Source: Chlamydiia bacterium (GTDB taxonomy: Bacteria; Chlamydiota; Chlamydiia; Chlamydiales; Rhabdochlamydiaceae). From it: a DNA stretch of 64,000 nt. Both the position numbers and the translations under genes were made by a program. The stretch is taken from assembly GCA_963804085.1 (NCBI GenBank), contig CAWDOQ010000019.1, positions 315,403 through 379,402 of the forward strand. Direction: 5' to 3'. Below the pieces are notes generated by a model that was not told where the DNA came from, made no database searches, and saw nothing but the letters and a program-made list of their open reading frames with translations. Position 1 is the first letter of the stretch; each line of letters opens with the position of its first letter. Shown here piece by piece: positions 28,200-28,655 of this stretch.

Positions 28200-28605
28200 T
28201 CAGATGTCTCCCAAGTCTCCTGATACGTGCCCGCGCGCGTGCCCGTGCCCGTGCCCGAATCTTCTCTTTTGTGCCATCTTGATTAACATAGAGACAATTC
28301 TCAATAATAAGTTTTCGTCCCTCGTTGTATTGGTTCTCTTCAATCGATTGTAGACTTTTGCAGACATCCAGGATTCCAGCAGACTCTGTTGCAGAACGCT
28401 TTGCCATGCGATAAAATCTGCATTTTTCATTGATTGAAAATTCACCAGCCCCTTCGGCAATATTCAAAGGAATCGAAGAGCTGGCGCGTTGCAACTGATC
28501 AGCCAAATAATTTTTGCCTCTGGGCATATGTTCTATAATTTGACCTGACAAAACAACAAATTCGATAGCTGTCTTATAAACATCGAGCTTTTCATGATCA
28601 AACAT
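28200..28605 (-). CDS. Four-helix-bundle protein (23S rRNA IVP / TIGR02436 / Avd-like) with one frameshift
   Basis: HEKLDVY, LADQLQRASSSIPLNIAEG, FYRMAKRSATE, with GGAG RBS. The family-type C-terminus LLLRIVSMLIKM lies in the +1 frame after an A4 run (28312-28315). Confidence 0.88.
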
Positions 28606-28655
28606 TATATCTCCAAAAAATTCGGGCACGGGCACGGGCACGCACACGGGCACGT
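28225..28655. repeat. Family A 36-bp inverted arms bracketing the four-helix-bundle gene
   Basis: 28225-28260 and 28620-28655 are reverse complements with 2 mismatches. Confidence 0.95.

Follow-up and report, generated by a model that had tools for sequence, protein, structure and literature searches.

A four-helix-bundle protein gene enclosed by inverted hexamer arrays between trpS and pknD of a chlamydia-like bacterium: a cassette resembling the intervening sequences of 23S rRNA

Intervening sequences (IVS) of 23S rRNA that carry an open reading frame have been known since the early 1990s. In excerpts from one account (PMC4990558), the origin and movement of these IVS and the role of their ORF are described as still open, and the IVS of Coxiella burnetii appears as a unit of 428-444 nt with a 28-bp stem and an S23p ORF, cut by RNase III in vitro. 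A second point of comparison is the REP/REPIN and RAYT system, in which, according to two papers (PMC3116915, PMC3733652), a Y1 transposase gene is flanked by inverted REPs. A third is Avd, the DGR accessory protein, whose assignment to PF05635 is noted in the literature (PMC10053308).

The sequence analysed here, called the window, is the whole stretch of 64,000 nucleotides taken from contig CAWDOQ010000019.1 of a Chlamydiia bacterium of the Rhabdochlamydiaceae (assembly GCA_963804085.1). A sequence-only reading of this DNA had described an inverted repeat at 28225-28260 and 28620-28655 (34 of 36 positions complementary) around a small gene. The repeat is real and forms the core of two arms of 39 nt each, which are 92% complementary and have 353 nt between them, so that the cassette as a whole measures 431 bp (Table 1). 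Each arm is a (CGTGCC)n array with about five CGTGCC hexamers. In the window, 19 sites match a 20-mer of the arm with no more than three mismatches; 100 shuffles give none. The same reading held that the arms enclose the ribosome-binding site and nearly all of the gene, and this is what we see: the loop contains a GGAG motif, the ATG and a region that scores 74 bits against PF05635, "23S rRNA-intervening sequence protein" (E = 1.4e-20, cut-off 33.8). Folding of the minus-strand RNA of positions 28190-28690 gives -187.2 kcal/mol (z = -8.9) with a stem of 41 bp (28655-28615 with 28225-28265), which is unbroken because both arm mismatches become G.U pairs on this strand. In the plus-strand RNA of the same region, the stem contains two C.A mismatches and the folding energy is -156.8 kcal/mol. 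The GAT trinucleotides immediately outside the two arms may be a 3-bp target duplication or a chance match (1 in 64).

Table 1. Features of the cassette, its neighbours and the gene-less hairpins in the window
Feature	Position	Strand	Remark
Cassette as a whole	28225-28655		431 bp
5′ arm (sense strand of the gene)	28617..28655	-	(GTGCCC)n-type hexamer array
3′ arm (sense strand)	28225..28263	-	(GGGCAC)n; open frame reads through
GGAG ribosome-binding motif	28611..28614	-	abuts the stem, 5 nt 5′ of ATG 28605-28603
GAT flanks	28222..28224 and 28656-28658		immediately outside the left / right arm
IVP / four-helix-bundle gene	28300..28605	-	helices 1-3 and start of helix 4; PF05635 match 28593-28300
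Displaced frame	28200..28310	-	encodes helix 4 (LLLRIVSMLIKMAQK) and an arm-derived tail; stop TGA 28202-28200
pknD-like Ser/Thr kinase gene	25420..28194	-	Pkinase E = 1.6e-44; own ATG 28194-28192
trpS	28724..29725	+	divergent from pknD; starts 68 nt past the cassette
Gene-less family A hairpin	4359..4456		12-mer arm family
Gene-less family A hairpins	13393-13505; 55876-55952		12-mer arm family
Gene-less hairpin, hexamer arm family of the cassette	6150..6216		loop TCCGGATTAAT
Gene-less hairpin, hexamer arm family of the cassette	50551..50655		AT-rich loop of 47 nt

By profile matches, the gene of the cassette (hereafter the IVP gene) is assigned to TIGR02436/PF05635, the family of the rRNA-IVS ORFs and of the DGR protein Avd. 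The sequence-only reading had recognised an IVP-family gene and in this was right; it overlooked a frameshift and an in-frame opening into pknD. One surplus T near 28309 causes a +1 frameshift in the window copy, in which the frame through helix 4 is not intact, helix 4 falling in another frame. From the shifted IVP frame to pknD there is no stop on the minus strand, and the ORF listing contains a single frame of 1109 aa (28749-25420). Contig C7 of the same assembly carries a second copy of 6.3 kb of the window region, 98.4% identical, with identical arms; its gene is without the T at ~28309, has two additional A further along and encodes an intact protein of 139 aa. The extra base is also absent from a metagenome contig of a related strain. 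Therefore, the window copy is either frameshifted or mis-assembled at that base. Small contigs (C7, and the pairs C1/C3 and C9/C10) duplicate parts of large contigs at 95-98% identity, which probably means that two strains are present in the bin.

The intact allele scores 82.5 bits against PF05635 (E = 2.9e-23) and 76.5 bits against TIGR02436, "four helix bundle protein" (cut-off 24, E = 1.6e-21). Its structural model (pLDDT 83.6) has four helices, at residues 4-25, 32-52, 58-84 and 90-112, and aligns with 2GSC (TM 0.72-0.75, rmsd 1.1-2.3), to which it is also similar by sequence (E = 3.4e-8), and with 2RLD (TM 0.70-0.72). The next-best folds, those of DGR Avd (4DWL/8UB7, TM 0.65-0.68), are weaker matches than these two. 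The tail that follows helix 4 comes from the arm and is read in a frame that differs per allele (GHGHGH, GTGTGT or RARARA), so the coding content of the arm is not conserved. The window also contains, at 30851-31150 on the plus strand, a longer type of PF05635 gene, composed of a four-helix bundle and a TIGR04258 suffix domain, of which the window has a broken copy and contig C7 an intact one (L001:1487-2335, minus strand). Its flanks, 30560-30760 and 31394-31560, are complete palindromic ACGGAC-type elements that are direct copies of each other.

The cassette has the same sense as pknD. Just past it, at 28196-28224 on the minus strand, the pknD leader has a small local hairpin (AUCAG...CUGAU) over a Shine-Dalgarno-like GGGAGA. 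Among the trpS loci of 29 family relatives, pknD is adjacent and divergent in 15, with a spacer of 28-243 nt in 12 of them and of 808-1399 nt in the other three, and none of these 15 spacers contains an IVP hit or hexamer arms. Subtracting the 431-bp element from the 529-nt spacer of the window leaves 98 nt, within the 28-243 nt of the 12 relatives. Since the interval is without gene and arms in the 15 relatives, the comparison shows a lineage-specific insertion of the cassette into a short trpS-pknD spacer. The sequence-only reading had suggested comparing this interval in relatives, and the outcome agrees with a unit that behaves as an insertion. The homologous genes of the relatives (56-73% protein identity) sit at other housekeeping loci: between aconitase and peptidase genes, serS and an M18 aminopeptidase gene, pyrB and a heptosyltransferase gene, comM and a DUF455 gene, beside udg, and between rnc and radA (in one relative, L012, these two genes are adjacent with the IVP cassette in between). 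Four DNA runs gave a single joint (28251>28622), which was considered as an empty pknD-trpS site and rejected: it has the loop letters of gene-less hairpins and just 26 nt on its shorter side, and so stems from other elements.

The location might also be read in another way, with the hairpin as a regulatory element of the host's pknD/trpS leader (an attenuator, terminator or stabiliser) and the gene as an ordinary resident. The element does lie in the pknD leader, and the stop codon of the intact IVP allele overlaps the start of pknD (ATGGTTGA), a layout that would permit translational coupling. Yet the same gene pair does without gene and arms in the 15 relatives, and the same package is found at unrelated loci elsewhere. 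Moreover, no U-run follows the stem on either strand, and a scan of the region gave just a partial stem of five pairs. We regard a regulatory origin of the hairpin as very improbable.

The genome contains many hairpins of similar design. In the sequence-only reading the window element was the filled form of the hairpins at 4359, 13393 and 55874 (family A; the last is 55876-55952 in Table 1). This identification did not hold: these elements have a different arm, the 12-mer CGCGCCCGCTTCCGCGCCCGCATGCGCGCCCGA, and the gene-bearing copy with that arm, the sole one in family A, lies at C10:17467-18069. The agreement in arm orientation that the reading had pointed out is true and uninformative, because the arms of any A-loop-rc(A) palindrome have an identical polarity whichever strand is read. 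The loop and gene of the C10 cassette are not repeated, while its arms are found about 97 times in the genome. Among 50 family A left arms examined, 41 have a partner and nine are solo. The 41 paired copies show no consistent target duplication, just polypyrimidine or polypurine flanks. What does stand is the broader claim that such hairpins exist in filled and empty forms, the empty ones of the window's own arm family being the last two entries of Table 1. A motif combining the commonest loop (TCCGGATTAAT) with the inner ends of the arms is matched 78 times here, and 40 family relatives yield no match. There are 82 GCCC-type inverted repeats in the genome, 71 of them with loops shorter than 150 nt, and all four with loops of 350-510 nt contain an IVP gene. 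Within the window all elements are intergenic, between co-directional, divergent and convergent genes alike.

Several other repeats belong to this landscape. At 15996-16368, a hexamer hairpin has a 314-nt loop without an IVP gene, in which there are GACGCAAAG-type repeats and a 24-nt perfect palindrome (16201-16255); this looks like repeats nested inside a hairpin loop. The segment 20054-20150 has two half-elements without partners nearby, arranged back to back with 28 nt between them: one is a G-rich hexamer-family arm, the other a C-rich arm from the 12-mer family. More intergenic palindromic repeat families occur at 24048-24190 and 43814-43919 (units GAGAAAAGGACCAAAATGGAC; TGGACGATA / GTCCACTTA). 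Finally, the only GxxExxY / PDDEXK_3 gene of the genome is a pseudogene with one internal TAA (C4:46918-47404, L004). It lies in a 53-nt inverted repeat of 9-nt periodic units (CACAGAGGC) and takes up exactly the whole loop. The GxxExxY element is a second cargo type of the same gene-in-a-hairpin design.

The association of gene and arms is not confined to the window. Four of the six PF05635 hits in the genome are of the short type (type 1), representing three distinct loci and the C7 allele, and all four are enclosed by GC-rich inverted repeats whose loops measure 359-509 nt. In family relatives, 9 of 11 loci (7 of 8, and 2 of 3 further ones) are enclosed, with arms of 20-57 nt and loops of 370-615 nt, each between different housekeeping genes. 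In a public genome collection, one genome per species was scanned. Among the best 80 loci of 527 relatives, 45 are enclosed by an ungapped inverted repeat of at least 16 nt, versus 3 of 70 controls, for which the identical test was displaced by 1.1 kb along the same loci. Many of the remaining 35 loci have just one arm, arms that have degenerated, or a whole hairpin beside the gene, and five of the 35 are copies in one metagenome-assembled genome (MAG) whose left end falls outside the searched span. Arms are found in seven phyla: Chlamydiota, Verrucomicrobiota, Planctomycetota, Lentisphaerota, Acidobacteriota, Myxococcota and Pseudomonadota (Legionellales and others).

These counts also bear on the possibility that an unrelated small gene has by chance come to lie between two solo arms of a REP-like repeat specific to this genome. 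Such arms are indeed very abundant in the genome, and solo arms occur, as in the nine family A cases above. A coincidence of this kind is nevertheless extremely improbable, given that every type 1 IVP locus of the genome is enclosed, that the GCCC-type repeats with long loops hold an IVP gene in four cases out of four, and that the association recurs across the seven phyla well above the controls.

Similarity to 23S rRNA was found beside the gene at 0 of 95 loci, and the six hits among 41 genomes around a Coxiellaceae MAG do not adjoin 23S rRNA either. As far as these loci go, the gene-plus-arms package is widespread across phyla and none of its copies lies in rRNA. In searches of plasmids and phages for the gene, the plasmids gave one weak match (Calothrix, 33% identity) and the phages none.

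The sequence of the arms varies from GC-rich GTGCCC to AT-rich ACGTTC/ACGTAA, in both polarities; their complementarity and periodicity are kept. At lags 6 and 12 the self-identity of the arms reaches 0.63 and 0.61, respectively, versus 0.11-0.33 at other lags, and the best lag is 6 in 38 of 41 arms. TGCCC-type hexamer arrays (at least five pattern matches) occur in 7 of 10 family relatives with a full-length gene versus 4 of 30 without one; these 40 genomes comprise two groups typed with different queries, and related genomes among them are non-independent. On the protein tree, which is poorly resolved and confounded with host phylum, the arm class changes 10 times, versus a mean of 13 and a minimum of 8 after shuffling. 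In one genus, two genomes can be compared at the same site, directly 3′ of the same stop codon and 5′ of the same terminator hairpin. One of them (G001) has a filled cassette at this place; the other (G064) has a hexamer hairpin with 24-nt arms and a 16-nt loop and no gene, and its genome gives no PF05635 hit at all. The filled and empty forms are thus states of one site.

Evidence for multiplication comes from one chlamydial MAG (L059-L080). There, a 1.1-kb unit is present in no fewer than 17 copies with 94-98% identity, including one short form of 0.5 kb. The unit ends in inverted repeats of 51-59 nt, of which the hexamer array is the inner part, is flanked by TA, and contains an intact IVP gene together with an IS5-like transposase remnant. 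These copies show a recent multiplication of the gene-bearing unit, and also that IS machinery can be involved. No transposase was found in the cassettes of the genome studied here, and a search of the whole genome for reverse transcriptase (PF00078) gave no match.

From the DNA point of view, the arms might simply be the terminal inverted repeats of a DNA transposon or MITE that is served by a transposase in trans, with the gene as cargo and the RNA hairpin incidental. The MAG unit just described, with its transposase remnant and TA flanks, fits such an origin, and so do the strand and orientation biases discussed below, both of which are non-significant. Several observations speak against it. 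First, the arms diverge among genomes yet keep their complementarity and 6-nt period, unlike ends that are bound by one transposase. Second, arms accompany the gene even in genomes where other hexamer arrays are almost absent (G010 and G032, with two pattern matches each). Third, most cassettes are without transposase, and consistent target duplications are missing in this genome. Fourth, the hexamers of the MAG unit sit inside a longer, IS-specific end, so that an IS may simply have captured a cassette. On balance, a transposon or MITE origin of the arms seems unlikely to us.

As to the RNA, a promoter scan of the window cassette found none on the minus strand. With just 11 nt between the 5′ arm and the ATG, a promoter inside the loop would not fit; elsewhere, about half of the cassettes have 60 nt or less between arm and ATG. 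Transcription would thus have to pass through the 5′ arm from the promoter region of pknD, placing both arms on one RNA. The gene would be transcribed as part of the pknD leader, and the arms would close the 41-bp stem described above. This stem would be a substrate of RNase III, as in the ORF-bearing IVS of 23S rRNA; cleavage would release the mRNA of the gene with paired ends and leave the pknD mRNA with a new 5′ end. We propose RNase III cutting because the cassette shares the gene family, the size and the stem-around-ORF design with the 23S rRNA IVS, and by this analogy excision by RNase III appears to be the likeliest fate of the cassette RNA. Read-through of the arms, cutting by RNase III and mobility of the window copy are what we infer for this locus.

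Three observations weaken the case for RNase III. Profile, protein and tblastn searches of this assembly did not recover rnc, the gene for the enzyme. The same searches did not find its usual neighbour radA either; as both are missing and the genome is 91% complete, the rnc region is probably unassembled. Next, an excess of G.U pairs on the sense strand is not significant: in 41 non-redundant cassettes, sense and antisense G.U mismatches number 22 versus 12 (p = 0.12), a tally that leaves out 12 copies of the multi-copy MAG (23 versus 2) as non-independent. The last observation concerns orientation. According to crude ORF calls, 11 of 53 cassettes are antisense to both neighbours, so that many copies cannot just ride on host transcripts. 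Relative to both neighbours, also by crude ORF calls, 16 cassettes are (+,+) and 11 (-,-), which is not significant; the raw counts are 25 and 13 before removal of two duplicate places and of the multi-copy MAG, which was dropped because its "upstream ORF" is the element's own transposase remnant. In the Chlamydiota-only subset, chosen post hoc, the numbers are 11 versus 1.

Taken together, we consider it probable that the locus is a 431-bp cassette in which hexamer arms surround a four-helix-bundle gene, which has been inserted next to pknD, is co-transcribed with its leader, forms a stem for RNase III and belongs to a selfish mobile unit. At the DNA level, such a unit would spawn gene-less hairpins that multiply in turn, about 70-80 of them in this genome. 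A further possibility, which we put forward tentatively and think rather doubtful, is that the four-helix-bundle protein is the trans-acting factor of a new mobile system and recognises the 6-nt-periodic duplex of its own arms. The protein would bind the arm duplex as an RNA or DNA hairpin and promote the copying or insertion of gene-bearing and gene-less hairpins, in a partnership like that of RAYT and REPIN based on an Avd-like, nucleic-acid-binding pentamer. In line with such a role, each of the three paralogues of this genome has its own arm family, one of these families includes about 40 copies without a gene, relatives that have the gene tend to have hexamer arrays too, and the proteins are strongly conserved. 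If this were true, the classical rRNA IVS would be merely those copies that landed in rRNA.

The gene-in-a-stem unit known from rRNA IVS thus also lives outside rRNA, in at least seven phyla, where it has a shared signature of inverted 6-nt arrays, multiplying gene-less derivatives, and filled and empty states at one site. In the literature searched, with subscription journals outside its coverage, we came across no account of hexamer arrays that flank an IVP gene at a site other than rRNA. With such units at hand, the question of what an IVS is becomes testable, through RNase III excision from mRNAs, binding of the protein to the arms, and movement of the unit. There are consequences for annotation as well: arms without stops are swallowed by neighbouring ORFs, which in the window produces a spurious 1109-aa "kinase". 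In chlamydia-like genomes, such cassettes are located within operons and leaders of housekeeping genes.

How does the cassette compare with mobile and repeat systems already described? With MITEs and insertion sequences it shares inverted ends, multiple copies, intergenic positions and gene-less derivatives, and in one MAG the copies are flanked by TA and carry a transposase remnant. Unlike them, the cassette has neither a transposase nor a consistent target duplication here, and its ends vary and yet stay periodic. The resemblance to Avd lies in the related four-helix-bundle fold of the protein (TM 0.65-0.68; 4DWL, 8UB7). In contrast to a DGR, however, the genome has no reverse transcriptase and the locus no template or variable repeat, and the sequence identity is about 8%.

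The likeness to REPIN/RAYT is one of layout. To judge from PMC3116915 and PMC3733652, both systems place a small gene between inverted hairpin repeats that also occur gene-less in intergenic regions, and both pair different paralogues with different repeat families. The gene of the cassette, however, encodes a PF05635 four-helix bundle with no known catalytic activity and not a Y1 transposase. This genome does have an IS200-like/RAYT gene (Y1_Tnp, E = 4.8e-27) at C17:57700-58364, between 63-nt inverted REP-like arms. A second pair of these arms, at C19:165996-166500, encloses remnants only. This IS200-like/RAYT system is separate from the hexamer hairpins.

The closest relatives of the cassette are the IVS of 23S rRNA. 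Going by the Coxiella IVS as described in excerpts of PMC4990558, the two have in common a PF05635 protein in the loop, nearly the same length (431 bp in the window, 428-444 nt in Coxiella), and a long stem around the ORF, built by terminal inverted repeats (36-41 bp versus 28 bp). The same excerpts attribute to rRNA IVS a sporadic distribution suggesting horizontal transfer and the lack of a promoter of their own, both of which are seen here. The differences are no less clear. The window cassette lies in an mRNA leader, between trpS and pknD, and so lacks the location by which an IVS is defined. The 23S rRNA of the genome has no large insert (positions 15-2044 of the Rfam model are matched in 2065 nt), and the claim that an IVP gene occupies a hairpin loop outside rRNA is upheld. 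Moreover, the arms of the cassette are 6-nt arrays, gene-less copies are dispersed in the genome, and excision by RNase III is, for this locus, a prediction. The same gene family and the same gene-in-a-stem design occur here in an mRNA leader, framed by periodic arms that are also dispersed as gene-less hairpins.
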